A DNA stretch of 64,000 nucleotides from Candidatus Onthovivens sp. Lineage in GTDB: Bacteria > Bacillota_I > Bacilli_A > RFN20 > CAG-826. The stretch's first letter is position 1, and every line of letters begins with the position of its first letter. Location of the stretch: positions 118,854-182,853 of the forward strand of contig DATESL010000004.1 in assembly GCA_035270825.1 (NCBI GenBank), written 5' to 3'. Of this stretch, positions 4,252 through 63,057 are shown one piece after another. The notes beneath the pieces were generated by a model, which made no database searches, was not told where the DNA came from, and worked only from the letters and a program-made list of their open reading frames with translations. A program made the translations under genes and the position numbers.

Positions 4252-6588
4252 CTATTTACGGTTAAAAAATGATCTTTTCTTAGGTTTTTCTTCAACAACT
4301 TCTTCAACCTTTGGTGCTTCTTCCTTAACGATAGGAGCTGGAGCAGCTTTTTCAGAATAAGAATCACGACGATTGTTATTATATGGTCTTCTAGAATCTC
4401 CACGATAATTTGAACTTGGTTTATATTCTCTACGTGGTCCTTGACTTGAACCGTGATTATCAGAATCGCCTTCTTTTCTTTCAACAAATTCTTTATGTGA
4501 AAGCTTGATTTTTCCATGATCATCAATACCAATAACTTTAACTTTTAAAGTATCGCCTACTTTACAAATTGCAGTTGCTGATTCAACAAAACCATGAGAA
4601 AGTCTTGAAACATGGCATAAACCTTCTTTATTACCAAATAATTTAACAAAGCAGCCATAATCTTCAACGCGAGTAATGACTCCTTCAAATTCTTCACCTT
4701 CTTCAACAATACGAGCAATATCCATCACAAAAGCTTGTGCTTTTTCAATCATTAACTTGTTTGTATGATAGATAGTAACAGTGCCTTCATCATTAATATC
4801 AATTTTAACATGATCACATTTATCAATAATATCGTTAATGACTTTACCGCCACTACCAATAACTTCTTTAATTTTATCTTTTTCAATTGTGAAACTGACA
4901 AATTTAGGAGCATATTCACTTAATTCTTCACGTGGAACACTAATTGTTGCTTCCATAACTTTTCTAATTTCAGCACGTGCTTTATTAGCTTGAGCTAAAG
5001 CTTCACGTAAAATTTCTTTAGAAATACCTTTAATTTTAATATCCATTTGAAGAGCAGTAATCCCTTTACTCGTTCCAGCAACTTTAAAATCCATATCACC
5101 AAAGTGATCTTCTAAACCTTGGATATCAGTTAAAATTGAGTAAGGATGATTACCATCTAAAGGTCCAGAGGTAATTAAACCCATTGCAATTCCACTAACT
5201 AATCCCTTAATTGGAACACCTGCGGCCATTAAAGCCATACAGGAAGCACAAATTGAAGCTTGGGAACTTGAACCATTTGATTCAACAACTTCTGCCACAC
5301 ATCTAATAGTATATGGAAATTCTTCTTCAGTAGGTAAAACATAACTTAGAGCTCTTTCACCTAAAGCACCATGACCGATTTCTCTTCTCCCAGGTGTGCC
5401 CATTCTACCAACTTCACCAACTGAGTAAGGTGGGAAATTGTAATGATGCATCCAGCGTTTGGAATCTTCTGGTGATAATGACTCAATAATTTGTTCATCG
5501 TTTTTAATTCCTAATGTACAAATAGAAATTGCTTGAGTTTGTCCTCTAGTAAATACGGCACTACCATGAGTTCTAGGTAATAAATCAATCTCAGCAAATA
5601 ATGGTCTAATTTCATCAATTTTACGACCATCAGGTCTAATTTTTTCTTCAGTAATTAATCTTCTTACTTCTTTTGCAATTAAGCCTTCTAAAATATCATT
5701 AACCATTAACATAGTCATTTTATGATCTTTTTCTTTAGCATATTCACGATCATCATAATCTTCAATAATTTCATTTTTAATTGCATCAATTGCATTTTGT
5801 CTTTCTAATTTATCAAAAATAGAAATTGCTTTGACTAAACGTTCTTCACAACGACCTTTAATGTCATTAAGCATTTCTTCACTTGGTTCAAATAATTTAA
5901 TTTCTCTTTTTGCTAAACCAATTTCTTTAATAATCTCTTCTTGGAATTCACATAATTTTTTAATTGCTTCATGACCAAACATTAAAGCTTCTAACATATC
6001 TTCTTCACTCACCTCATTGGCACCAGCTTCAACCATGTTAATAGCTTCTTTGCTTCCACCAACAGCTAAGATTAAATCAGAGTTTTCTCTTTGTTCAACG
6101 GTTGGGTTGATAATAAATTGACCATCAACTCGACCAACATAAACACCAGCAATTGGACCATCAAAAGGAATATTGGAAACTCCTAAAGCTAAGGAAGCTC
6201 CAAACATTGCAGTCATTTCTGGGGTGGCGTCTAAATCAACACTCATTACAGTGTTAACAATTTGTACTTCATTTCTAAAACCTTCACTAAACATTGGTCT
6301 AATTGGACGATCAATTAAACGAGCAGTTAAGGTTGCATGTTCTCCTGGACGACCTTCTCTTCTTAAGAAGCCTCCTGGAATACGACCCATAGCATATTGT
6401 TTTTCTTCATAACCAACGGTTAAAGGGAAAAAATCACCCTCTTTTGGATTATCACTACAGCAAGCTGTTGATAAAACGACTGTGTCGTTAAGTCTAACTA
6501 AAACGGCACCATCTGCTTGTTTTGCAATTTGTCCATTTTCTACAATGAGTTTTTTTCCATAAAACTCCGTCTCAAATACTCTTTTCAT
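4252..6588 (-). CDS. pnp: Polyribonucleotide nucleotidyltransferase (PNPase) with an extra basic, low-complexity C-terminal tail
   Basis: Two RNase PH domains (GRREIGHGALGERAL, FGDMDFKVAGT), then KH (GSGGKVIN) and S1 (GVITRVEDYGCFVKL). 778 aa, followed by a tail of about 75 aa rich in R/K/S/N/P. Confidence 0.97.
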   Translation of the reverse strand: MKRVFETEFYGKKLIVENGQIAKQADGAVLVRLNDTVVLSTACCSDNPKEGDFFPLTVGYEEKQYAMGRIPGGFLRREGRPGEHATLTARLIDRPIRPMFSEGFRNEVQIVNTVMSVDLDATPEMTAMFGASLALGVSNIPFDGPIAGVYVGRVDGQFIINPTVEQRENSDLILAVGGSKEAINMVEAGANEVSEEDMLEALMFGHEAIKKLCEFQEEIIKEIGLAKREIKLFEPSEEMLNDIKGRCEERLVKAISIFDKLERQNAIDAIKNEIIEDYDDREYAKEKDHKMTMLMVNDILEGLIAKEVRRLITEEKIRPDGRKIDEIRPLFAEIDLLPRTHGSAVFTRGQTQAISICTLGIKNDEQIIESLSPEDSKRWMHHYNFPPYSVGEVGRMGTPGRREIGHGALGERALSYVLPTEEEFPYTIRCVAEVVESNGSSSQASICASCMALMAAGVPIKGLVSGIAMGLITSGPLDGNHPYSILTDIQGLEDHFGDMDFKVAGTSKGITALQMDIKIKGISKEILREALAQANKARAEIRKVMEATISVPREELSEYAPKFVSFTIEKDKIKEVIGSGGKVINDIIDKCDHVKIDINDEGTVTIYHTNKLMIEKAQAFVMDIARIVEEGEEFEGVITRVEDYGCFVKLFGNKEGLCHVSRLSHGFVESATAICKVGDTLKVKVIGIDDHGKIKLSHKEFVERKEGDSDNHGSSQGPRREYKPSSNYRGDSRRPYNNNRRDSYSEKAAPAPIVKEEAPKVEEVVEEKPKKRSFFNRK

Positions 6589-6662
6589 ATTCTTTCTTTC
6601 CTTTTTATATATTGTCTTATTTTATAACTTTTTGCCTCTAAATGCTAGGTAATTAATTTAAT

Positions 6663-6691
6663 AAAAAAACTTCCTCTTGGGAAGTTTTTAA
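6663..6691 (-). terminator. Intrinsic terminator/processing hairpin between rpsO and pnp
   Basis: Stem aacttcc (6668-6674) / ggaagtt (6680-6686), with an A run on one side and a T run on the other. Confidence 0.6.
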
Positions 6692-6698
6692 TTTTTAC

Positions 6699-6968
6699 TT
6701 ATTTTCTTAATCCTAAAGCTGCAAGTATTTTAATATATGCGTCTCTATCGATAGATTCTAGATATTTTAGTAATGATTTACGTTGTCCAACAAAGATAAG
6801 TAATGCACGTCTAGCACGGTGATCTTTGTCATTTGCTTTTAAGTGTTCAGCAAGATTTTTAATTTCTTCTGTTAATAAAGCAATTTGAACTTCACAACTA
6901 CCAGTGTCTTTAGCATTTTTACCAAATTGTTTAACAATTTCAGCTTTTCTAGTTTTGTTAATAGCCAT
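6699..6968 (-). CDS. rpsO: 30S ribosomal protein S15
   Basis: MAINKTRKAEIVKQFGKNAKDTGSCEVQIALLTEEI... I chose the internal ATG at 6968, which gives 89 aa and is preceded by AAGGAGAAAAAG. The 33-codon N-terminal extension in the ORF track is not S15-like. Confidence 0.95.
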   Translation of the reverse strand: MAINKTRKAEIVKQFGKNAKDTGSCEVQIALLTEEIKNLAEHLKANDKDHRARRALLIFVGQRKSLLKYLESIDRDAYIKILAALGLRK

Positions 6969-7114
6969 CTTTTTCTCCTTTATTTGAATTCGCTTTAAAC
7001 GTTGGTAAAGGTTGGAGTATCCTAAATCAAAGTATAAAGTACGCTTAATATTGTATAAATTTATCACCTTAAAAGCAAGATAAACTTTTAAATCTTCTTA
7101 ATACTTAGTGATTA

Positions 7115-8020
7115 TTATAAAAAATACTTTCTTGCAGTCTCTTCATCATTTTCCATTGCTTTAATTAGTTCTTCTTTTGAATAAAATTTAATTTCACAAC
7201 GTAATAATTTATAAAAATCGATAAGAATTTCTTGATCATAAATATCTCTATTAAAATCTAAAATATATGTTTCAATAGTCATATTATTATTTTCATTAAC
7301 GGTTGGATTAGTCCCTATATTTGTTAAGGAATTATAAACCTCATCATTAATAATTGTTTTAGTGATATAGACTCCACACTTAGGAATTACATAATCATCA
7401 TTTAATTTGAGATTAGCTGTTGGGAAACCAAGCTTTTTTCCTAGCCCCTTACCCTTACAAACAACACCTTCTATGCGATATTGGCGCCCTAAAAGTAAGG
7501 CTGCTTCTTCCATTTCTCCGTTTTGAATGAGAAGTTTAATTGTCGATGAAGAAATTTTGCTTTTATCGAAATTACTTAAATAATTTACAACATTCACATT
7601 ATTAAATTGATCTTTTAAATAATTAACATCTCCTAAAGCCTGATGACCATATTTAAAATCCGGTCCACAAAAAATTTCTGCTGGATTAATTTTTTTTAAG
7701 ATTTTCTCTATAAAATCACCATAAGATAAATTCTTTAAATTATTATCAGTATTTAAAATAAAGACTTTACTAATTCCAAGTTTCTCAAAACGCTTAAGTC
7801 TTCTATTAAGAGAAGTTAAACATTGGTTTGTTTTCTTTAGCGGTTTATCAAATGTTAAAATTGCTAACTCATTATTAGACATATTTTTAGCTGAATTGAT
7901 TAAATAAACATGCCCAATATGCACTCCATCAAAATATCCAAGAATAAGTGCAAACTTCTTCTTGGTTTCAATAATATCAGAATAATCATTTAGATAGGTA
8001 ATTTCCATATTTTCACTCAT
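7115..8020 (-). CDS. ribF: Bifunctional riboflavin kinase / FMN adenylyltransferase
   Basis: N-terminal GYFDGVHIGH nucleotidyltransferase motif and C-terminal riboflavin kinase (GFPTANL ... GTNPT). 301 aa, in the conserved position upstream of rpsO. Confidence 0.9.
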   Translation of the reverse strand: MSENMEITYLNDYSDIIETKKKFALILGYFDGVHIGHVYLINSAKNMSNNELAILTFDKPLKKTNQCLTSLNRRLKRFEKLGISKVFILNTDNNLKNLSYGDFIEKILKKINPAEIFCGPDFKYGHQALGDVNYLKDQFNNVNVVNYLSNFDKSKISSSTIKLLIQNGEMEEAALLLGRQYRIEGVVCKGKGLGKKLGFPTANLKLNDDYVIPKCGVYITKTIINDEVYNSLTNIGTNPTVNENNNMTIETYILDFNRDIYDQEILIDFYKLLRCEIKFYSKEELIKAMENDEETARKYFL

Positions 8021-15842: not shown

Positions 15843-16523
15843 ATGAAATATGAAATAATACTTTTAATAATCGGACTAACTCTTTTTTTAGCTTTAGGAA
15901 TTATTGAATTAGTCTTTTGTTATCGTGAAAATGCGAAATTAAGGAAGATCTTCAAGTGTTTTTCAATCACGATTTTAGGAATAGTCCTATCAATTGTTTT
16001 TCCAGATAAACCATTTATTTATGTAGCGGCATTTCTTTATACAATTGGTGATTTTTTCTTAATATTTAAAGGTAAAAAGTATCTGACAATCGGAACCAAT
16101 TTCTTTTTATTAGCTCAGGTATCAGTAATAACTCAAATCATTATTTCTCTTAATCCAACTCTAGTTTTCACTGATTTTATTTATTTAATTATAATTTACT
16201 TGCTCTTCTTTACTCTTTTTAAAATTTTCTTTTATAAGAAGATGACGTTTAAATATTTTCTGCCAGCTTGTGGTTACTTTGCAATTCTGATTCTTGGCCA
16301 GTATATCTCGTTTCTTTATGCTTTAAAAACCAATTCTAATTATTTATTTTTAACTTCTCTTGGTTACACTATATTTATTTTTAGCGATCTATTTGTTTTG
16401 CGTCAAAATTTTGTCGTCACTAAACCACGAGAGGATTTCTTAATTATGTTAACTTATTACTTAGCTGTTGTGTTTGTTTTAATGGGATTAGTTTTTAGTT
16501 TTACTAATCTTTTTCTCTTTTAA
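15843..16523 (+). CDS. YhhN-family (lysoplasmalogenase-like) polytopic membrane protein
   Basis: About 7 TM segments and the YTIGDFFLI motif typical of YhhN/TMEM86. Confidence 0.6.
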   Translation: MKYEIILLIIGLTLFLALGIIELVFCYRENAKLRKIFKCFSITILGIVLSIVFPDKPFIYVAAFLYTIGDFFLIFKGKKYLTIGTNFFLLAQVSVITQIIISLNPTLVFTDFIYLIIIYLLFFTLFKIFFYKKMTFKYFLPACGYFAILILGQYISFLYALKTNSNYLFLTSLGYTIFIFSDLFVLRQNFVVTKPREDFLIMLTYYLAVVFVLMGLVFSFTNLFLF

Positions 16524-17189
16524 TAAAGTTTTAATATCAATAAATAGTGGTATCCCATAACTAATTAAACAAATTGAACCAATTAAAATGGCACAATTTT
16601 GAAAGAAAGTTACTTGGAAAATATTTATAATTGGATCTATACGATAATCAAAGAACCAGTTAGTTTTTGTTGGAAAAAATATTAAATGAAAAAAAGTAAA
16701 AGCGCCATTAAAGTCAATGAGTGCATAAATGGCTAAACATCCTCCAAAGACGAGTAAAATTAATGGAACAATCGAGAAAAATGATAATTTCTTGAATTTA
16801 ACAAGTTCAAAAACTCTAAATTTTAATAATGTTAGTAAAACTATTAATGAAGTAGCTGAAGCTCCCAAAAGGGAAAAATTGAAGATAAATAGTGTTCTTA
16901 CATCATAAAAATGCATCATTCCATCGTAAGTAAATGGTATTTTGCCTAGATCAAATGGTTTATTAAATATTAAAAAATCTAAAAGCAAATTATAGCTTTC
17001 TTTAATGTCTTCGACAGTTAGAGAAAGTCCGTTCCAATATTCTAAAACCTCCAAAACAAGTGTTGATTCAATATGAATATAATAGAAACCACGAATTAAA
17101 ATTGGTAAAGAAATACTAAAAGTTAAAATAAACAAGGTAAAAGACAAGCCAAGTAAAATATTTAAAGAATAGTTTCTTAATTTTATCAT
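16488..17189 (-). CDS. TIGR01906/DUF1461 integral membrane protein (the family of lipoprotein intramolecular transacylase Lit)
   Basis: Size, TM layout and the extracytoplasmic HFYDVRTLF motif resemble DUF1461. Recognition is from memory only. Confidence 0.5.
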   Translation of the reverse strand: MIKLRNYSLNILLGLSFTLFILTFSISLPILIRGFYYIHIESTLVLEVLEYWNGLSLTVEDIKESYNLLLDFLIFNKPFDLGKIPFTYDGMMHFYDVRTLFIFNFSLLGASATSLIVLLTLLKFRVFELVKFKKLSFFSIVPLILLVFGGCLAIYALIDFNGAFTFFHLIFFPTKTNWFFDYRIDPIINIFQVTFFQNCAILIGSICLISYGIPLFIDIKTLLKEKKISKTKN

Positions 17190-19740: not shown

Positions 19741-19809
19741 CTATTTTACCACAATAGAGTAAAAAATAAAGCACTAAATATTTTGTTAAAACACGACCAT
19801 TAAGCCATT

Positions 19810-20370
19810 TATTTAGAACTTCAGATAAGTGTAAACATTTAAGAACTTTAAATGAGAAAGAATGAATTTTTCTTATAAATTTACTTAATTTAAGTGAAGA
19901 AAATAGACTTAATTATTCAAAATGGATAAAAAAATTGGGTACCACAGAGGAAATTAATCCGATATAAGTAAAATAATTTAATTATTTTATTACTTGTTCA
20001 ATACCCAATTTAAATTAAAAATAATGAAAAATATATTTATTGGAAAAATAAAAAATAGTGCAGATCCTGTGAGATTTCTCACATTTCATATTATTTCTAA
20101 TACTATCGAATTCAACACTAATTATATAATAATATTAGTTTTGTTTCATTGTGTCAATGTTTATTTTACAAATATTTCTTATATTTAAGTTATTGTGGTT
20201 ATATTTTTTAAAAATGGAGATAAATATGGTTAAAAAGGTATATTGCTTTGTAGTATTATGATTGGTTGTTTGTCGTTTACTAATCCTTTTTCATATGAGT
20301 GTATCATAGATAACTCTAATGTTTTGGATGATTTATTAGAAGTAAAATTTGATTTTTATAAAATTTAAAG
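19810..20370 (+). repeat. Copy A (decayed) of a tandemly duplicated small-gene cassette of about 0.5-0.65 kb
   Basis: 19841-19990 aligns with 20486-20630 (aagaactttaaat...ttcttataa.tt..cttaatttaa...cttaatta...). 20261-20340 aligns with 20762-20840 (attggttgtttgtc.tttact.atcctttttcatatgag). Copy A carries an in-frame TGA and a frameshift. Confidence 0.75.
20226..20368 (+). pseudogene. Frameshifted, truncated paralogue of the small lipoprotein gene at 20729-20965
   Basis: The ATG at 20226 runs into TGA after 11 codons. The +1 frame continues MIGCLSFTNPFSYECIIDNSNVLDDLLEVKFDFYKI*, matching LIGCLSFTDPFSYERIIDSSHVLDDLLEDD of copy B. Confidence 0.6.
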
Positions 20371-20454
20371 TTTAAATTCAAAAAAAAGATAGTTATTTTG
20401 TCTACCATGTTTATACTAATTTAACTAAAAATCAATTTATAAAAGAGAATCTTT

Positions 20455-20965
20455 TACTTAAAGATGGTGATTATTTTAGAAATTTAAGAACTTTAAATAA
20501 GAAAGAAAAAATTTTTCTTATAAGTTTGCTTAATTTAAAAGATGAAAATAGGCTTAATTATGATAAATGGTTAAAAAAAATTGAGTACAACAGGTGGAGA
20601 ATTAACTCCTGTAAGTAAAATAAATCAATTACTTTGCTTACGTGTTCCATACTCAATTTATTTAAATTATATTAAAAATAATTTTATTTGTCAATGGTTT
20701 CAAATTTTTATTAATTTAGGAGGTGTTTATGATAAAAAAAGGATTGTTTTGTTTTATTTTAATTGGTTGTTTGTCCTTTACTGATCCTTTTTCATATGAG
20801 CGTATCATAGATAGCTCTCATGTTCTTGATGATTTATTAGAAGACGATAACTTTAAATTAGATTTTAGGTCTGGTCTTTATGATTTTAATTTGAAAAATG
20901 AAATTAAGCTGGTTCATGTTGCTGAGTATAATTATCAATCGAAAATACAGCAGGAAAATATGTAA
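20455..20965 (+). repeat. Copy B of the duplicated cassette
   Basis: It contains an 80-codon open frame (20376-20618) ending ...FRNLRTLNKKEKIFLISLLNLKDENRLNYDKWLKKIEYNRWRINSCK* that has no in-frame ATG. It also contains the small lipoprotein ORF. Confidence 0.7.
20729..20965 (+). CDS. Small predicted lipoprotein (78 aa), function unknown
   Basis: AGGAGG sits 5-6 nt upstream of the ATG at 20729. Signal peptide MIKKGLFCFILIGC has lipobox LIGC. The ORF-track start at 20723 is a GTG two codons upstream. Confidence 0.5.
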   Translation: MIKKGLFCFILIGCLSFTDPFSYERIIDSSHVLDDLLEDDNFKLDFRSGLYDFNLKNEIKLVHVAEYNYQSKIQQENM

Positions 20966-21011
20966 ACATATTCTTGATACACTTGATACAGATTTTGGAA
21001 GACTTAAGAAT

Positions 21012-21036
21012 AAAAAAACACGATAGTTATCGTGTT
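21012..21036 (-). terminator. Intrinsic terminator downstream of the tRNA-Asn/tRNA-Glu pair
   Basis: aaaaacacgatagttatcgtgttat is identical to the element after tRNA-Gly. Confidence 0.7.
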
Positions 21037-21548: not shown

Positions 21549-21576
21549 TTAAAAAAAGAGAGTAAAACTCTCTTTT
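21549..21576 (-). terminator. Intrinsic terminator ending the Tad-like operon
   Basis: Stem aagagagt (21556-21563) / actctctt (21567-21574), followed on the minus strand by a T run of 7. It starts right at the pilin stop codon. Confidence 0.7.
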
Positions 21577-21796
21577 AATTAAATGATATTAAATCGATTT
21601 GACTAAACTCATTTTCACTATTCTTTTCAGAATTTTCTTGGGTTGTTGGTTTATTAAGTTCAGTCCCAGCACTTGTAATGTTATTAGCAACTTCATTAGC
21701 TTTTGTTGAAAAAGCTTGATATAAAACTCCCGCTACAACTGAAAATATTGCTAAAACTAAAACTACTCCTAAAATTTGTCCCTTAATTTCTGCCAT
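21575..21796 (-). CDS. Flp/type IV pilin-like small protein (candidate major pilin)
   Basis: 73 aa. AGGAGG lies 8 nt upstream. The sequence reads MAEIKG then QILGVVLVLAIFSVVAGVLYQAF (a 6-aa charged leader ending in Gly, then a hydrophobic helix of about 22 aa), followed by a polar tail. It is the last gene of the ATPase/platform operon. Confidence 0.6.
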   Translation of the reverse strand: MAEIKGQILGVVLVLAIFSVVAGVLYQAFSTKANEVANNITSAGTELNKPTTQENSEKNSENEFSQIDLISFN

Positions 21797-21810
21797 TAAA
21801 TGATCCTCCT

Positions 21811-22164
21811 TTAATTATAAATACTTATAACAGCATATCTTTTTATATTTATATTGATGGTTTCATGAGCCATGATGAGTGGCTGATACTTCGAACTCAG
21901 ATAATATTCAAAAATATCTCCTTTCTTATACGCACTGATATCGGGGTTAACCTCAATTAAATAAACATGATAATTTTCTTCAGCATATTTTTTTAAGTCT
22001 GCTGAAATTTGAGCTTCTTTTGAAATTTTATAGCTAATGTATGTGCTTAATGAATCTAGATTAGAGTAATTAAGTTGGATTAAAACAACATCTACTCCAA
22101 ACATAAAAGCAAAGAAGATAATAAATATTGATAGTATTGTTCCAATTTTAGAACCCATTAGCAC
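21811..22164 (-). CDS. TadE-like minor pilin/pseudopilin candidate
   Basis: The N-terminus M(L)MGSKIGTILSIFIIFFAFMFGVDVVLIQ resembles the TadE N-terminal hydrophobic motif (..E/x-F-A-L-x-x-P..LFG-I-V-D/E). 117 aa. Confidence 0.5.
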   Translation of the reverse strand: MLMGSKIGTILSIFIIFFAFMFGVDVVLIQLNYSNLDSLSTYISYKISKEAQISADLKKYAEENYHVYLIEVNPDISAYKKGDIFEYYLSSKYQPLIMAHETININIKRYAVISIYN

Positions 22165-22834
22165 TATCTCCTAATAAACCAACAACACAATAAACAATTA
22201 AAAGCATAATAATTCCACTGCCAACAATTGAAAAAATATTAATATTCTCAAAAACTTTGGTTCTTTGGTTAGAACGAAAGGTTTCATTAGTATTTTTAAA
22301 GTTCTCAAAAATGTTGATAAATTGATTTAGATAAATATTTGAATTGCCGCAATTGGTGATTTCATATAAAGAAATCATCACTTCTTCAATTGTTTTATTT
22401 TTAAAAGAAGCAGAAAAATTAATAAATGGGGTGATTGATTTATCATTATCAATTTCTTCAATCAAGACATTAATTTTTTCTTTCATTTTATCACTAGCAA
22501 ATTCAACGATAGAGCAAAGCGAAGTATAAACATTTTGCTCATTATAAAGATAAATTCTAAGATATGAGAAAATCTCAATAAATTCATCGTTTAATTTCTG
22601 TTCAATTTCAAGTTCCTTTTTCGAATATCGATAGAAAAAAACATAGTTGGTTGTTGCTAAAAATATTGCTCCCATTGCCAGGTAAATGATGTTCTTAGTC
22701 AGGAATATTATGAGAATGCATGTTACCAATACTATTGTATTTATAGTTCCTAAGAACATCATTTCTTTTTTGTAGGAAAGTCCTAGACTTTCAATTCTTC
22801 TTTTTAGATTTTTCATCTTTAAAATCTCCTTCAT
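22148..22834 (-). CDS. TadC-like inner-membrane platform protein (T2SSF-type architecture)
   Basis: Two N-terminal TMs, a helical cytoplasmic region of about 120 aa, and a C-terminal TM pair. It is a paralogue of the upstream gene. The real start may be MKNLKRR at 22816. Confidence 0.55.
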   Translation of the reverse strand: MKEILKMKNLKRRIESLGLSYKKEMMFLGTINTIVLVTCILIIFLTKNIIYLAMGAIFLATTNYVFFYRYSKKELEIEQKLNDEFIEIFSYLRIYLYNEQNVYTSLCSIVEFASDKMKEKINVLIEEIDNDKSITPFINFSASFKNKTIEEVMISLYEITNCGNSNIYLNQFINIFENFKNTNETFRSNQRTKVFENINIFSIVGSGIIMLLIVYCVVGLLGDSANGF

Positions 22835-23522
22835 TTACAAATCTCAAATCAAATAAGCGATTGAGATAGAGGAATAAAAACCCAATAAAAACTAAGAAAA
22901 AGAAGAAAACGCCATATTTGTAAAAATCCATTTTTAAGATTGATTGATAAAAAATAGATAGTGATATTTGCACAATAATTAAAATAACAATTGTTAAAGT
23001 CCATAAAATGAAGAATTCAATAAAGTGCATCTTTGCACTCTTTTTAAAACTTTCTAAGGAATTTTCAATCTTACGACTATCAAAGATTAAGAGCTGAGCA
23101 ATTTGTAAGATATTCCCACCATTATAGTTATATTGATCAATAAGTTTTAAAAAGACCTCAAAAAGATTTAAATTAAAATAGTCTTTTAGATATTTAATTT
23201 TTTCTTCAATTTGTAAATGTTCGATCGTTTCAACCTGAGCTTTTAGTTCCTTAGAAAAAGAATCTTCAATATGATTAAAGGTATTATTTAAAGAATTATT
23301 GACGCTTAATGTAATAATAAAATTATTGATAAAGGAAATACATTCATGTGTTCTTTTATCAATTTTGGCATATTTTCGATATTTCCTTTCAACGAAGAGA
23401 AAAAAGAATAAATTAAAAATTAAAAACAAGACTAAAGTCATAATTAAATCACGAACTGTATAGTAATAAATACCACTCAGTAATATTGTGACGCTTAGAT
23501 AGATTAGAGATCGTTTAATCAT
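22791..23522 (-). CDS. TadB-like inner-membrane platform protein (T2SSF-type architecture)
   Basis: Same 2 TM + helical domain + 2 TM layout. The ...NGGNILQIAQLL... segment is in the position of the T2SSF conserved Gly. Confidence 0.55.
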   Translation of the reverse strand: MIKRSLIYLSVTILLSGIYYYTVRDLIMTLVLFLIFNLFFFLFVERKYRKYAKIDKRTHECISFINNFIITLSVNNSLNNTFNHIEDSFSKELKAQVETIEHLQIEEKIKYLKDYFNLNLFEVFLKLIDQYNYNGGNILQIAQLLIFDSRKIENSLESFKKSAKMHFIEFFILWTLTIVILIIVQISLSIFYQSILKMDFYKYGVFFFFLVFIGFLFLYLNRLFDLRFVNEGDFKDEKSKKKN

Positions 23523-23525
23523 AAT

Positions 23526-24581
23526 TTAAAACACTCCTATGGGCTCTAAGAGCCATTCGTTATTAAAATTTAGGAAATTTTCACTACTTAAATTAAGTTC
23601 TTTTTCAAAATCACTTGGAAGTTCAAAATAAGTACTTGGGTATTGATAAAGACTGTAATATTTGTGTTTAAAATTAGTACCGATTTCGTTAATAAATCGC
23701 GAGATACTTCCATCTTCATTAACTCTTTTTTTCACATAAATTAGTATTTTAAAGTGATCATAAATATCAAATAAAACTTCTTTGAATTTCAAGTTATCGT
23801 TCGAAATCATGCACATTCTTGCCATTCTTTGATACATATAATCGGCTTGTTTAGCATGAAGAGTTGTAATTGTTGGATGCCCTGTCATGGCCCCATTTAA
23901 AATAGAAATCATTTCTTTTCCTCGCGATTCACTAATAACTAACCAATCTGGGTTACTTCTCAGAGCATTTTTGATCAATGCTTCAAAATTAATATTAGTT
24001 CCGTCACGAATCAACCATGTTTGTAAATCAATTTTGCCATCAAGAAAACTCACATCTAACTCATCAACATTATCAATTACAATTACTCGTGTATTTTCAT
24101 TAAAGATTGTTAGTAAATATTTTTGAAATTCAGTTTTTCCACTACTTGTTTCGCCGCCAATTACAACAGATAGTCTATTTTTGATAAATAAATTAATTAG
24201 TTTTAAACATTTTTTTGTAACGAAGCGTGAATCGGCGTCAATTCTTAGTTTATCACTGCTAATACGAATGGAAAAATTAATAGCTTGTTCTCTACTTTTT
24301 CTTGAAATAATTGGATGAGTCGCATTAATTCGATATTTGCCACATGAGATATCTAAAATCGGGTTGGAGAGATTAAACTGAGAATCGCTCAAGTTACCAA
24401 TTTGACGAATAAAATCAAAGGCTTCTTTTTGATCTATTTTCATTCGGGCTTTAGTTCTTCCTTTATAATTATCTTGATAAAAAAGATCTTCGCCATTAAA
24501 TGAAATATCTGTTATATCGCTAACATCAATAAGTGGTTTTAAAAAGCTTGTCTCAATAAATTCAATTAATTGATTATTCAT
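23526..24581 (-). CDS. TadA/CpaF/VirB11-family secretion ATPase
   Basis: Motifs: ITDISFNGEDLFYQD (N-terminal domain), Walker A GGETSSGKTE, Asp box RVIVIDNVDEL, Walker B DWLVISESRGKE, His box GHPTITTLHA. 351 aa. Confidence 0.85.
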   Translation of the reverse strand: MNNQLIEFIETSFLKPLIDVSDITDISFNGEDLFYQDNYKGRTKARMKIDQKEAFDFIRQIGNLSDSQFNLSNPILDISCGKYRINATHPIISRKSREQAINFSIRISSDKLRIDADSRFVTKKCLKLINLFIKNRLSVVIGGETSSGKTEFQKYLLTIFNENTRVIVIDNVDELDVSFLDGKIDLQTWLIRDGTNINFEALIKNALRSNPDWLVISESRGKEMISILNGAMTGHPTITTLHAKQADYMYQRMARMCMISNDNLKFKEVLFDIYDHFKILIYVKKRVNEDGSISRFINEIGTNFKHKYYSLYQYPSTYFELPSDFEKELNLSSENFLNFNNEWLLEPIGVF

Positions 24582-24583
24582 AA

Positions 24584-24991
24584 TTAAACAATTGTCCCCC
24601 TATCAATTTTAAAAGAAATATAACCATCAATTTTATAATCTAGATAATAATTAGCAACAACTCTAATTTGAATGGCATCTGGACGAGTTGAGAGATCAAT
24701 CACATAGTCTTCATTTTTAAATTTAAAATACTTATAACCAATTTTATAAGAACTAATCTTATTTTGAAAAATATATGAAAAATATTTTTCGATATCTTTT
24801 TCTAGATTGTCTTTTAAGAAGTAAAACACTTGTCCATCCTCGTCTTTTGTTCCTCTTGTAACATTGTTTTCTAAAATTGAGGTTGGAATATTATATAAGG
24901 CACGATTAAAACTCATACCAGTCGTCGAAATTACTAAGGTGACTAGGGTCGTACCAACAATTGTTAATGAGAAAAATAATGGGGCAATCAT
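24584..24991 (-). CDS. Membrane-anchored protein of the pilus operon (possible TadF/minor-pilin-like); function unknown
   Basis: Single N-terminal hydrophobic helix MIAPLFFSLTIVGTTLVTLVISTTG, then a beta-rich domain of about 110 aa. It is translationally coupled on both sides. Confidence 0.4.
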   Translation of the reverse strand: MIAPLFFSLTIVGTTLVTLVISTTGMSFNRALYNIPTSILENNVTRGTKDEDGQVFYFLKDNLEKDIEKYFSYIFQNKISSYKIGYKYFKFKNEDYVIDLSTRPDAIQIRVVANYYLDYKIDGYISFKIDRGTIV

Positions 24992-26067
24992 TAAATAATA
25001 ATCTCCTTTAATAATTCATCTTCAATTGGTTCTTTAATCTCGCCAACAATATCGAATTTTCCTTCATTTGGATTTTCACCAAAAATAAATTTTAAATATA
25101 TTTTTAATGTATATGAATACTGACCAAAGTTTTTCAATTCAATTTCATACTCGGTTTCTTTATGTGCTGCTTCTTCTTCAAAAGGGAAATAAAGTAAACC
25201 CTTACTATAGAAACGCTTGCCTGGCTCGCCCTTATCTAGAAAACTCATATTAGTTAAATAGTCAATATAGTAGGGCAAACTAAAGTTGATATCGCAACTT
25301 CGTAAACTAAAATCAACATCAACTGGGATGATGGGTCGATAATTGCTGACATCAGAATAAAGAATATATCGCAAACCATTATACTTTTTCATGACATATA
25401 GTCGTGGTTTACATGTCTTATAGTCAAAATTTAGTCCGTCTTGATAAAGATGAAATTTTAAACCTAGGTTATTGAAATCAATATGAGAATACTCTGGAAT
25501 ATAGTTAATAAGATCAAAGTTATTTAAAATCAAAATATCACCAGAAATAATCGCTAACCCCTCTTGATAGAGAAAATAATGTGGTAAAAACATTTGTTTT
25601 TGCGTCAAAACAATTTGGTTTTCCACAATTGGTAAAAAAAGCGGGACGCGAAAAAGAATCATATCAAGCTCGCTATAATTTCCCTTGACCCGACATTCAA
25701 ATTCAACTTCTCCATAAACTTCACTTCTTGGAACCATCAGGTGATAGGTAAAATAGTCAAAATGATAAAGAGGTGCAACAACTTTTTCTGTCTTTATAAG
25801 CTCCTTTTCTTTATAGAAATTAAAGTAAATATCTGGAACAGTTTGAGGAGAAGCATCGCGGAAGGTAAAAATTTGTGAATAGGAAAAATAGCTTGACTTA
25901 CTGATATATTGATTGAACTTATCTAATTTAATTTCCCAAGTCGTATCAAATTCAAATTGACGATTAGTAGCACTAATTATCGAACGCTCGTTATTTTGTG
26001 CTCCATTAAAAACAAGTGATGGTATAAATGAAAATAATATTAAGAGTTTTGCTAGTATTTGGAACAT
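24991..26067 (-). CDS. Secreted or N-terminally anchored protein, first gene of the pilus operon; function unknown
   Basis: Signal-like N-terminus MFQILAKLLILFSFIPSLVFNGAQ. 358 aa, Tyr/Phe-rich, with no motif I recognise. Confidence 0.4.
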   Translation of the reverse strand: MFQILAKLLILFSFIPSLVFNGAQNNERSIISATNRQFEFDTTWEIKLDKFNQYISKSSYFSYSQIFTFRDASPQTVPDIYFNFYKEKELIKTEKVVAPLYHFDYFTYHLMVPRSEVYGEVEFECRVKGNYSELDMILFRVPLFLPIVENQIVLTQKQMFLPHYFLYQEGLAIISGDILILNNFDLINYIPEYSHIDFNNLGLKFHLYQDGLNFDYKTCKPRLYVMKKYNGLRYILYSDVSNYRPIIPVDVDFSLRSCDINFSLPYYIDYLTNMSFLDKGEPGKRFYSKGLLYFPFEEEAAHKETEYEIELKNFGQYSYTLKIYLKFIFGENPNEGKFDIVGEIKEPIEDELLKEIII

Positions 26068-62598: not shown

Positions 62599-62700
62599 AG
62601 AAAATTATCTCTTAAATTCCGACCCATGAACAAAACCCACAGCAAATCCACCAAAAAAAACATTGATGGTGGGCTATAAATTAGTATGTCTGGTGGAGAT

Positions 62701-63057
62701 GCGGAGAGTCGAACTCCGGTCCATATATAGCCCCACAAAGAGCCCTACAGTTTAGTAAATATTATTTATTTAACGTTTTAATCAACATTTACAAACTTTG
62801 AACGCGAGATATTTAATGTTTTCATTGCTGACCTAATATCTAAGCCATCACCTATCTTCTTTTTTTACAAACGGTCTTACAATAAGAAGCTAACATGTAA
62901 GGGTTCGCGCACAACCTCTAAAGAGATTTTAATACTGCACTAAGCAGCAAATGCGAGGTTTAATTGTCTGTTGCCAGATAATTGATTGTTGGTGTTTAAC
63001 GCCACCACACGACTGCTCTCTAAGCCAAACTATATATGTCGAAACCATAACATCCCC
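62701..63057 (-). ncRNA. ssrA: tmRNA (SsrA)
   Basis: The reverse complement starts GGGGATGTTATGGTTTCGAC and ends GGACCGGAGTTCGACTCTCCGCATCTCCACCA (tRNA-Ala-like acceptor/T-arm). The tag frame GGC AAC AGA CAA TTA AAC CTC GCA TTT GCT GCT TAG gives GNRQLNLAFAA* (62940-62975). Confidence 0.92.

Follow-up and report, generated by a model that had tools for sequence, protein, structure and literature searches.

We analysed a 64,000-nt stretch of DNA from Candidatus Onthovivens sp. (GenBank assembly GCA_035270825.1, contig DATESL010000004.1, positions 118,854 to 182,853, hereafter called the window) and concentrated on a run of seven genes, g1 to g7, which an initial annotation made from the sequence alone had described as a compact Tad/Flp-like type IV filament operon. 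Our results suggest, with a probability that we put at about 0.62, that the genes of this operon code for a minimal machine of the type IV filament (T4F) superfamily that stands alone, that it belongs to an undescribed clade shared with the blocks of genes 36-41 of conjugative plasmids such as pLS20, and that it is fixed in its lineage, where it likely has a role in adhesion. The best reading is that it is a domesticated machine for a filament or for surface display, and that the block lost, or never had, its link to the type IV secretion core in this lineage and is fixed between gmk and acpP. The genes and signals of the operon, with the roles that we propose for them, are the following (aa, amino acids; ORF, open reading frame).

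g1, 24991-26067, minus strand: 358-aa ORF, candidate adhesin or cargo
g2, 24584-24991, minus strand: 135-aa bitopic protein, possible assembly-initiation or minor-subunit protein
g3, 23526-24581, minus strand: 351-aa secretion ATPase of the T2SSE family, the putative motor
g4, 22791-23522, minus strand: 243-aa polytopic membrane protein, putative platform subunit 1, very divergent T2SSF-type
g5, 22148-22834, minus strand: 228-aa polytopic membrane protein (222 aa from the ATG at 22816), putative platform subunit 2
g6, 21811-22164, minus strand: 117-aa bitopic protein, DUF4320-like, candidate minor-pilin or pseudopilin-like subunit
g7, 21575-21796, minus strand: 73-aa pilin-like protein, candidate major filament subunit
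Shine-Dalgarno sequence AAGGAGG of g7, 21805-21812, minus strand: 8 nt 5' of the g7 ATG and overlapping the g6 stop codon, read from the sequence
Intrinsic-terminator-like hairpin, 21554-21576, minus strand: 10-bp stem, 3-nt loop and T-run, closing the operon

The ORF list reproduces exactly the seven co-directional minus-strand ORFs previously placed between 26067 and 21575, and the other features of the layout noted at that time also hold. The junctions overlap or are at most 14 nt wide: g1 and g2 share 1 nt, the gaps are of 2 nt between g2 and g3, 3 nt between g3 and g4 and 14 nt between g6 and g7 (the largest), and g5 and g6 overlap by 17 nt. The overlap of g4 and g5 is 44 nt, or 26 nt if translation of g5 starts from the ATG at 22816, as its recorded 222-aa product implies; the probable start of g6 is the MGSK at 22158. 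The first base of the terminator (10-bp stem and T-run at 21576-21554) is also the last one of the g7 stop codon, in a scanned region where 8 terminator-like sites were observed against 1.7 expected from shuffles. The very strong ribosome-binding site attributed to g7 was equally confirmed (AAGGAGG, 8 nt 5' of the ATG) and is the strongest in the operon. The GC content of the operon is the same as that of its surroundings (26-30% across the window), and g1 faces gmk directly across 93 bp. Standard stop codons are used in the window, because translation table 11 yields long ORFs.

The putative motor of the operon is g3, the only one of the seven proteins to which direct Pfam and NCBIfam scans gave a name. 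It matches Pfam T2SSE (E = 3.8e-20), which settles the profile check proposed for it at the outset, and its translation contains the Walker A, Asp box, Walker B and His box motifs, i.e. the four that had been quoted as the full VirB11/CpaF/TadA signature. An AlphaFold2 model of g3 (predicted local distance difference test, pLDDT, of 87) retrieved CpaF, FlaI and afGspE with Foldseek (approximately 1e-22 to 1e-21) ahead of VirB11 (1e-19), the top match being CpaF at 1.8e-22. When we scanned g3 with the NCBIfam equivalogs every score was below the cutoff (VirB11 TIGR02788, 112 bits against 250; TrbB_P, 79 against 305; ComGA, 59 against 300). The best scores were those of VirB11 and of the TadA family conjugal transfer-associated ATPase, and there was also a weak match to the bindosome ATPase BasE.

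The closest relatives of g3 outside its own lineage are found on Firmicutes conjugative plasmids. These came first in a tblastn search of g3 against the 72,556 plasmids of PLSDB, with 25-34% identity and E-values down to 2e-41; the top plasmids were from Paenibacillus larvae, the B. cereus group (including pXO1 and pXO2), Enterococcus (pZB18), Listeria, C. perfringens and B. subtilis. The CpaF of alpha-proteobacteria (1e-13) and the VirB11/TrbB of Gram-negative bacteria (1e-7 to 1e-10) ranked far lower. We then scored reference ATPases with one hidden Markov model (HMM) built from the ATPases of RFN20, the order in which GTDB places Ca. Onthovivens. The highest scores were obtained for a P. 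larvae plasmid (279 bits), for L074, an integrative and conjugative element (ICE)-like locus in a metagenome-assembled genome (MAG) of an uncultured Firmicutes (276), and for pZB18 (250) and pLS20 gene 37 (249), followed by a B. subtilis WH60A plasmid (231) and pXO2 (212). Outside the conjugative-plasmid clade the top-scoring reference was the CpaF of Azospirillum (126 bits); lower scores were given by afGspE (114, the top PDB sequence for this HMM), HP0525 (105), Caulobacter CpaF (95), FlaI (91), C58 TrbB (87) and IncX3 VirB11 (63). In a neighbour-joining tree (314 columns, 100 bootstraps), the RFN20 ATPases were monophyletic (92%) and grouped with those of the Firmicutes conjugative elements (92%), and the clade that also includes the ATPase of locus L076 ('Mollicutes bacterium LVI') had 100% support. 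CpaF, the archaeal ATPases and VirB11/TrbB were all placed outside the clade of RFN20 and plasmids. On the evidence of these scores and groupings, g3 belongs to a clade of 'TadA/VirB11-like' ATPases of Firmicutes conjugation operons. It fails the equivalog cutoffs of the Gram-negative VirB11/TrbB, which are among the most distant ATPases by HMM. The clustering of the ATPase with conjugative VirB11/TrbB, raised earlier as a result that would refute the initial reading, is borne out for the 'VirB11' of Gram-positive plasmids (212-279 bits, 92%) and not for the VirB11/TrbB of Gram-negative bacteria (63-105 bits). By score, this clade is itself nearer to CpaF (126 bits) than to TrbB (87 bits).

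The similarity with plasmids extends to the genes around the ATPase. In pLS20, the Tie adhesin (768 aa) is followed by proteins of 66 and 120 aa, by gene 36 (126 aa), by gene 37 annotated as 'tadA'/VirB11 (402 aa), and by genes 38, 39, 40 and 41 (267, 245, 120 and 47 aa), with VirD4 and the VirB6-like p028 further downstream. The products of g2 to g7 (135-351-243-228-117-73 aa) are arranged in the same order as those of genes 36 to 41 (126-402-267-245-120-47 aa), and pXO2 and pZB18 carry the same gene series. Profile comparisons with hhalign linked most of the corresponding pairs. g2 was weakly matched to the 122-aa protein of pZB18 (69%), to a 132-aa protein encoded upstream of VirD4 in P. 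larvae (54%) and to pLS20 gene 36 (30%), of which it is the counterpart. g4 was matched to the 280-aa protein of L074 (94.6%), to pLS20 gene 38 (84%) and to the 277-aa protein of pXO2 (60%), while g5 was matched to the 229-aa protein of L074 (98.7%), to the 'FlaJ' of P. larvae (98.1%), to the 249-aa protein of pXO2 (85%) and to pLS20 gene 39 (35%). g6 gave 94.7% with the 120-aa protein of pXO2, 94.4% with pLS20 gene 40, 90.9% with the 120-aa protein of pZB18 and 60% with the DUF4320 protein of L074. In Pfam, gene 36 is DUF5411 (1.4e-5) and gene 40 is DUF4320. The genes of the L074 locus encode, in order, a thioester/ChW adhesin, proteins of 126 aa and 124 aa (the latter a DUF4320 protein), the ATPase, the 280-aa and 229-aa proteins and a TrbL-like protein, and a VirB4-like ATPase lies two genes beyond the latter. 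A more distant version of the operon is present in complete genomes, at L076:6088-12013 (Mollicutes bacterium LVI A0039, CP136953.1) and at L077. In L076 it encodes a bitopic protein of 132 aa, an ATPase with 28% identity to g3, a membrane protein of 663 aa without a Pfam match, a 233-aa membrane protein at the position of g5, and a 114-aa protein (MGEVQGS…) with an N-terminus like that of g6.

The operon is thus collinear with, and in one ATPase clade with, the pLS20-family operons, which include those of pXO2/pAW63-type plasmids, of pZB18, of Paenibacillus, Listeria and Clostridium plasmids and of ICE-like loci. As in pLS20, a gene for a secreted surface protein lies upstream. Unlike in pLS20, the genes lie in the chromosome between housekeeping genes and are inherited vertically, g7 has no detectable kinship to gene 41, g1 is no thioester/isopeptide adhesin, and we found here no VirD4, VirB4, VirB6, VirB8, VirB1, relaxase or TrbC/VirB2. 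Indeed, tblastn searches with VirD4, VirB4, VirB6-like, TrbL, relaxase and VirB2 proteins from pLS20, the P. larvae plasmid, L074 and pXO2 gave no match in the window or in the RFN20 loci. Since type IV secretion system (T4SS) proteins were not found at these loci, the module of the RFN20-like lineage seems to work without an adjacent secretion core, and we regard the operon as a homologue of the pLS20 module and not as a conjugation system. The published work on pLS20 lists genes 36 and 38-41 as 'unknown' and gene 37 as 'putative VirB11', and says that these plasmids encode no pilus components (PMC8557374); a review of 2025 says that the Gram-positive T4SS are universally without VirB11 (PMC12857230). 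Because the papers list the genes as unknown and deny VirB11, the T4F-like nature of the block appears to be undescribed in the literature that we searched. Searches pairing RFN20 with pili retrieved no paper, and the same was true for DUF4320.

The operon is strongly conserved. A scan of one genome per species revealed 77 loci encoding relatives of the g3 ATPase, almost all in MAGs of uncultured gut, rumen and faecal Bacilli, including Ca. Onthovivens. Using tblastn and ORF maps, we found a near-fixed architecture in around 60 (50-60) species, with the same order and similar gene sizes: the genes encode, in turn, a secreted protein (310-400 aa), a bitopic protein (about 130 aa), the ATPase (about 352 aa), two membrane proteins (about 238 and 223 aa), a second bitopic protein (about 113 aa) and a final protein (46-75 aa). 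The flanks are also conserved, with acpP after the end of g7 and a divergent gmk upstream. All seven genes are under purifying selection (dN/dS of 0.04-0.64 by the Nei-Gojobori method in six species pairs). The values are 0.06-0.11 for the ATPase, 0.07-0.21 for g4 and g5 and 0.09-0.63 for g1, the fastest-evolving genes of the operon being g1 and g7. Judging from these sequence patterns, the operon is a conserved, functional and vertically inherited chromosomal unit, and neither a mobile island nor a chance run of ORFs. The PNPase encoded in the window is 76-79% identical to those of MAGs of Ca. Onthovivens sp., Bacillales UBA4855 and rumen Bacilli. The families of RFN20 are predicted to have no peptidoglycan, and the host lineage is probably wall-less. 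In approximately 38 relatives the operon is headed by an extra gene absent from the window, g0 (e.g. L015:6286-6606), which encodes a small soluble protein of 95-130 aa, a possible regulator in which the motif INNEFFYQDYPxWW is conserved. We considered that g0 might be a homologue of the pLS20 antiterminator ConAn1 and rejected this (hhalign 0.1%).

The membrane proteins g4 and g5 are paralogues (hhalign 96.4%, E = 1e-9), in line with the split two-gene platform recognised in the initial annotation. The arrangement that had been described for both, i.e. a transmembrane (TM) pair, a domain of about 120 aa and another TM pair, is correct for g4, whereas in our reading g5 opens with a TM pair, continues with a cytoplasmic domain of some 125 aa and ends, at the C-terminus, in a single long hydrophobic stretch. 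Of 48 members of the g5 family, seven match Pfam T2SSF (best E = 2.3e-5). None of the 51 members of the g4 family has a direct match, and the plasmid counterparts of g4 have weak but full-length ones (E = 0.04-0.19). An AlphaFold2 model of g5 (pLDDT 85) had among its ten top Foldseek matches in the PDB nine to the cytoplasmic domains of GspF/EpsF/OutF, PilC and TcpE and to the GspF-like SpoIIIAB, with TM-scores of 0.55-0.71 on the target over the whole domain and probabilities up to 0.94. Searches of the g4 and g5 family profiles against PDB sequences found nothing. An exhaustive profile search extended the g5 family to 428 clusters at 50% identity, counting the strong members listed, and gave no bridge to canonical TadC. 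These profiles and the model point to g4 and g5 being a very divergent platform pair of the GspF/TadC type at the level of family and fold only, an assignment that for g4 goes through its paralogy with g5 and its plasmid counterparts.

The last gene, g7, encodes a protein whose 6-residue leader precedes a hydrophobic helix of some 25 residues; the polar tail, 15-40 residues long and rich in S/T/N/E, is highly variable. The leader is MAEIKG|Q in the window and MSEIKG|Q in most relatives. Across 40 species the consensus of the N-terminus is M-S-E-[ILVF]-K-[GA]-[QS]-[IL]-L-G-[IV]-x-L, where M1, E3, K5, L9 and F18 are invariant and S2, G6, Q7 and G10 are at least 90% conserved. A class III core of the FlaFind type is present in 37 of the 40 members, 2 of the 40 weakly match the archaeal Pilin_N of Pfam, and the leader is a candidate archaeal-type class III signal (K-G|Q). 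No similarity was detected by hhalign between g7 and pLS20 gene 41, the 48- and 49-aa proteins of pXO2 or TrbC/VirB2. The operon resembles the archaeal systems (Epd, FlaI, afGspE and Bas) in this signal without Glu+5 in 37 of the 40 g7 and in its minimal gene set without a secretin. It differs from them in its bacterial host, in that no PibD, FlaK or EppA was found, in the marginal Pilin_N matches, and in that g3 lacks the long N-terminal domain (351 aa instead of about 510 aa).

The N-terminus of g6 is short, related to that of g7 and conserved as M-[SG]-x-K-[IL]-[GSA]-LILS and is followed by a TM helix and by ..Q..Y..LD. Weak matches to Pfam TadF were obtained for 5 of 42 members of this family (E = 0.019 or weaker). 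g2 has a TM helix right at its N-terminal start and contains the motif G-x-N-R, and its ectodomain is about 100 aa long; we examined if g2 and g6 were paralogues and rejected it, as there is no homology. In the P. larvae plasmid, a 118-aa protein (L080:5548-5904) begins with MSELKGAIFSILIL (MSELKG), the same six-residue leader as the RFN20 g7, and its body resembles the g6/DUF4320 proteins in motifs, with an hhalign value of only 27% to the g6 profile. Such sequences hint that g6 and g7 may share an origin. In pZB18, about 0.85 kb separates the adhesin gene at the head of the module from an upstream gene for an intramembrane glutamic endopeptidase of the CPBP family (L081:2656-3102), a possible candidate for the processing of the small TM proteins.

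The N-terminus of g1 resembles a signal peptide in all positional orthologues, some of which have a lipobox, and the orthologues share only the C-terminal motif YVNxxTxxMS...FYxP. No Pfam family was found for g1 or for its 49 orthologues, and a k-mer/HMMER search with g1 found g1 alone. In the plasmid modules the position of g1 is held by large adhesins (Tie, SpaA-like), and we regard g1 as a candidate adhesin or cargo. Tandem ORFs of 370-377 aa occupy the g1 position in two loci whose ATPases are among the closest to that of the window (L001:4918-6030 and 6102-7217; L002:5204-6337 and 6399-7532). They may represent a duplication of g1, which would fit a diversification of surface proteins.

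For filament assembly, pilin processing and biological role, we infer the following by analogy with the Tad, archaeal and type II secretion machines. The g3 hexamer would dock beneath a heterodimeric platform of g4 and g5, and its ATP-driven movements would extract the abundant g7 from the membrane. The hydrophobic N-terminal helices of g7 would then stack into a thin filament or a short pseudopilus, whose assembly the bitopic g2 and g6 would prime, and the fast-evolving secreted g1 could be presented on or beside it as an adhesin. That g1 and the tail of g7 evolve rapidly fits surface exposure. In a cell with no wall and no outer membrane, a secretin and wall-spanning parts would be dispensable. 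The likely role is adhesion to the host, to mucus, to particles or to other cells.

Several observations weigh against a T4F machine of this kind. Some concern the pilin-like proteins. The bacterial motif G-x4-[DE] is found in none of the 40 g7 members, which lack Glu+5, and no curated pilin profile was matched above threshold by g7, g6 or g2. The g7 leader is unusually invariant, including Glu3, which is atypical of cleaved leaders, and the Gly at position -1 is not universal in the wider family, as pLS20 genes 40 and 41 are without it. We found no A24 peptidase in the 64-kb window using a six-frame regular expression for G-x-D-x-K, Pfam on polytopic ORFs and tblastn with the Azospirillum peptidase, nor within about 8 kb of the operon in the 77 related loci. 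The cleavage of g7 is uncertain because of the lack of an A24 peptidase near the 77 loci, of the invariant leader including Glu3, and of the Gly(-1) that is not universal. Other observations concern the rest of the machine. The g4 and g5 of the window do not themselves match Pfam T2SSF, and the Foldseek E-values of the g5 model are around 1. The ATPase tree is a rough neighbour-joining tree whose deep nodes are unresolved, and the negative result for T4SS core genes covers the window and the RFN20 loci only. To our knowledge, no filament has ever been reported for pLS20-type systems. Reviews deny both pili and VirB11 to the T4SS of Gram-positive bacteria (PMC8092201, PMC12857230).

A broader version of the proposal would make the pLS20 36-41 blocks and the operon one unrecognised T4F clade, which on plasmids would produce the 'missing' pilus or adhesin-presenting filament and in the RFN20-like lineage a domesticated core filament. 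The A24 peptidase would perhaps be dispensable in this clade: the MSEIKG of g7 with its fixed Glu3 could stay in the mature protein, or another intramembrane protease could cut it. The Tie adhesin of pLS20 is needed for mating in liquid and is not sortase-anchored, and its anchoring is unexplained (PMC8092201); that Tie is needed in liquid and yet not anchored by sortase fits an adhesin-presenting role of the plasmid versions. The thin pilus of IncI R64, a type IVb pilus, is an analogue of the plasmid relatives in that T4F genes lie inside a conjugation region. This pilus promotes liquid mating (PMC12857230), and pLS20 is also noted for its efficient mating in liquid (PMC8092201). R64 differs in belonging to another T4F clade and a Gram-negative host, with a PilQ ATPase, a fused PilR platform, a PilU peptidase and PilV adhesins, and its kinship with the operon was compared at the level of the ATPase superfamily. 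We offer this broader version tentatively and consider it possible, though not probable. If true, a plasmid filament would explain both the mating in liquid and the sortase-independent display of Tie.

The operon could also produce no free filament at all and instead be a device for surface assembly or export, similar to the pseudopilus of type II secretion systems or to the archaeal bindosome (Bas), which places g1 or the Tie-type adhesins. Upstream of the module there is always a gene for a secreted protein or an adhesin (g1 here, Tie in pLS20, SpaA-like in pZB18, thioester/ChW in L074), the non-sortase anchoring of Tie lacks an explanation (PMC8092201), the ATPase has its weak match to BasE, and pili are unreported for pLS20 donors. 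This reading relies on the gene neighbourhood only, and it is opposed by the traits of a polymerising subunit in g7 (the top translation signal of the operon, an invariant hydrophobic N-terminus and a hypervariable tail), while no binding-protein-like substrates with class III signals were seen. We find it unlikely, but still a rival to be taken seriously.

Another explanation is that the operon is a working or decaying part of a conjugative T4SS, integrated or split over several loci, in which the ATPase is a VirB11-like energiser of DNA transfer. All close annotated relatives of the operon lie inside conjugation operons, beside VirD4, VirB4, VirB6-like and TrbC/VirB2 genes, and the best NCBIfam scores of g3 are with VirB11 and the TadA family conjugal transfer-associated ATPase. 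However, the tblastn searches with the T4SS proteins of four elements were negative in the 64-kb window and the RFN20 loci, and the ATPases most distant from those of RFN20 among the ones compared are precisely the Gram-negative VirB11 and TrbB. Furthermore, the gmk and acpP flanks are kept in approximately 50-60 species, the genes are intact and under purifying selection, and their GC content is that of the surroundings. These results make the explanation improbable.

The operon might also encode a pseudopilus for DNA uptake (competence) that replaces ComG in a reduced, nucleotide-salvaging genome. Like comG, it has seven genes in a monoderm host, a short leader ending in K-G and no secretin. 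The leader of ComGC resembles the 6-residue leader of g7 ending in KG, and Flp-type pili are needed for the transformation of Micrococcus luteus. Moreover, T4Fs of several kinds mediate DNA uptake (PMC6668835). The differences with ComG are nevertheless extensive: g3 reaches 59 bits for ComGA where the cutoff is 300, ComGB is a fused two-domain protein, ComG pilins have the F+1/E+5 signature that is missing in g7, and the gene order is another one. ComEA, ComEC and ComFA were not recognised among the window ORFs examined, and the nearest relatives of the operon serve DNA export. We give little credit to this possibility.

The weakest alternative is the one closest to the initial annotation, that of a canonical compact Tad/Flp (type IVc) locus made of tadA, tadB, tadC, a TadE-like gene and flp, with TadV encoded elsewhere. 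We took as canonical reference an Azospirillum plasmid locus (L085) encoding Flp, a prepilin peptidase, CpaB, a secretin, CpaD, CpaE, CpaF, TadB-E and TadG. The operon shares with this locus and with the Caulobacter Cpa system a T2SSE ATPase without the PilB-type N-terminal extension or the tetracysteine motif, a two-gene platform, a very short pilin and small bitopic accessory proteins. In favour of a Tad locus are this split platform and short pilin-like product, the first rank of CpaF among solved structures in Foldseek (1.8e-22) and among the non-plasmid HMM scores (126 bits), the weak TadF matches of 5 of 42 g6 relatives, and the name 'tadA' that RefSeq gives to the pLS20 homologue. However, the profiles of g2, g4, g5, g6 and g7 had hhalign values of at most 12% with the TadB, TadC, TadE and Flp of Azospirillum. 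TadZ/CpaE and TadV/CpaA were found neither among the seven genes nor among their neighbours in the window and the related loci, CpaB was absent from the operon and the window, and the operon further differs from Tad in having no G/XXXXEY motif, secretin or TadD. The ATPase is in a separate plasmid clade with 92% bootstrap, and vertical inheritance at a housekeeping site is unlike the often-transferred Tad loci (PMC6668835). We consider it very unlikely that this is a Tad locus.

The earlier naming of individual genes changes accordingly with these comparisons. The Tad/Flp label holds at the superfamily level only, because the profiles are unlinked and TadZ, CpaB and TadV were not found: a T4F-like operon around a T2SSE ATPase (3.8e-20) with a GspF-like platform pair is retained, and the assignment to Tad/Flp is not, given the hhalign values, the 0 of 40 g7 with the G-x4-[DE] motif, the lack of TadZ and TadV at the locus and the separate ATPase clade. 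The membrane pair cannot be named TadB and TadC (at most 12% to those of Azospirillum). A TadE-like identity is not supported for the 117-aa g6, which fails Pfam TadE, has less than 1% in hhalign with the Azospirillum TadE and is instead homologous to the DUF4320 proteins. The 73-aa g7 is small, probably highly expressed and pilin-like, as had been proposed; it is not Flp-like, having no Pfam Flp_Fap match and 1% in hhalign with the Azospirillum Flp. The remark that the window has no TadZ/CpaE or A24 peptidase agrees with our results, and for A24 the regular expression, Pfam and tblastn searches agreed.

We made some further observations on the window. A contig matching its 22148-23522 region (L078, Logan ERR8110330_37780) differs from it at 4 of 3,994 bases, and its gene calls give a g4 of 275 aa and a g5 of 175 aa. 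We rejected strain polymorphism as the reason, for the call reads through the TGA stop codon of g4 as under genetic code 4, an annotation artefact to guard against in public gene calls for this lineage. The codon CGG is absent from the 12,305 codons of 22 long ORFs of the window and occurs once in the seven-gene operon, at codon 126 of g1. A paper of 2026 reports the reassignment of CGG from Arg to Trp in Onthovivens genomes (PMC13092985), and because of this the residue at codon 126 may be Trp and not Arg. The remaining annotated ORFs of the window are housekeeping or transport genes. Adjoining genes at 15843-17189 encode a YhhN-family membrane protein and the lipoprotein intramolecular transacylase Lit (Pfam 6.5e-29); Lit implies lipoproteins of the lyso-form, which touches on an earlier remark about surface enzymes anchored by a lipobox. 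An imperfect direct duplication of about 645 bp, with segments 80-88% identical, occupies 19808-21035 in an apparently non-coding region of about 1.3 kb, between a gene for an HGSNAT-like acyltransferase and genes for tRNA-Glu and tRNA-Asn. Its copies each hold an ORF fragment with a lipoprotein-type N-terminus (…IGCLSFT[ND]PFSYE.IID.S.VLDDLLE; 20243-20368 and 20723-20965), and no Rfam match was found in this region. A tmRNA gene is encoded at 62691-63057 on the minus strand (Rfam, 126 bits). The tag given by ARAGORN, DGLDIRSAMKTLNISRSKFVNVD, is long and without the usual ...ALAA ending; this prediction may be wrong, or the tag may be unusual.

The neighbours of the pLS20 'VirB11' gene have the parts list of a T4F machine, and this bears on how donors and recipients come into contact in Gram-positive bacteria. 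In the lineage studied here, the operon likely encodes a major surface organelle of uncultured gut Bacilli with reduced genomes and probably no wall. It would be a naturally minimal system, made up of six or seven genes and including neither a secretin nor wall-spanning parts. The invariant leader of g7, without Glu+5 and with no A24 peptidase nearby, points to a possible unusual route of maturation of pilin-like proteins. The finding would connect an organelle of a wall-less gut lineage with cell contact in Gram-positive conjugation.

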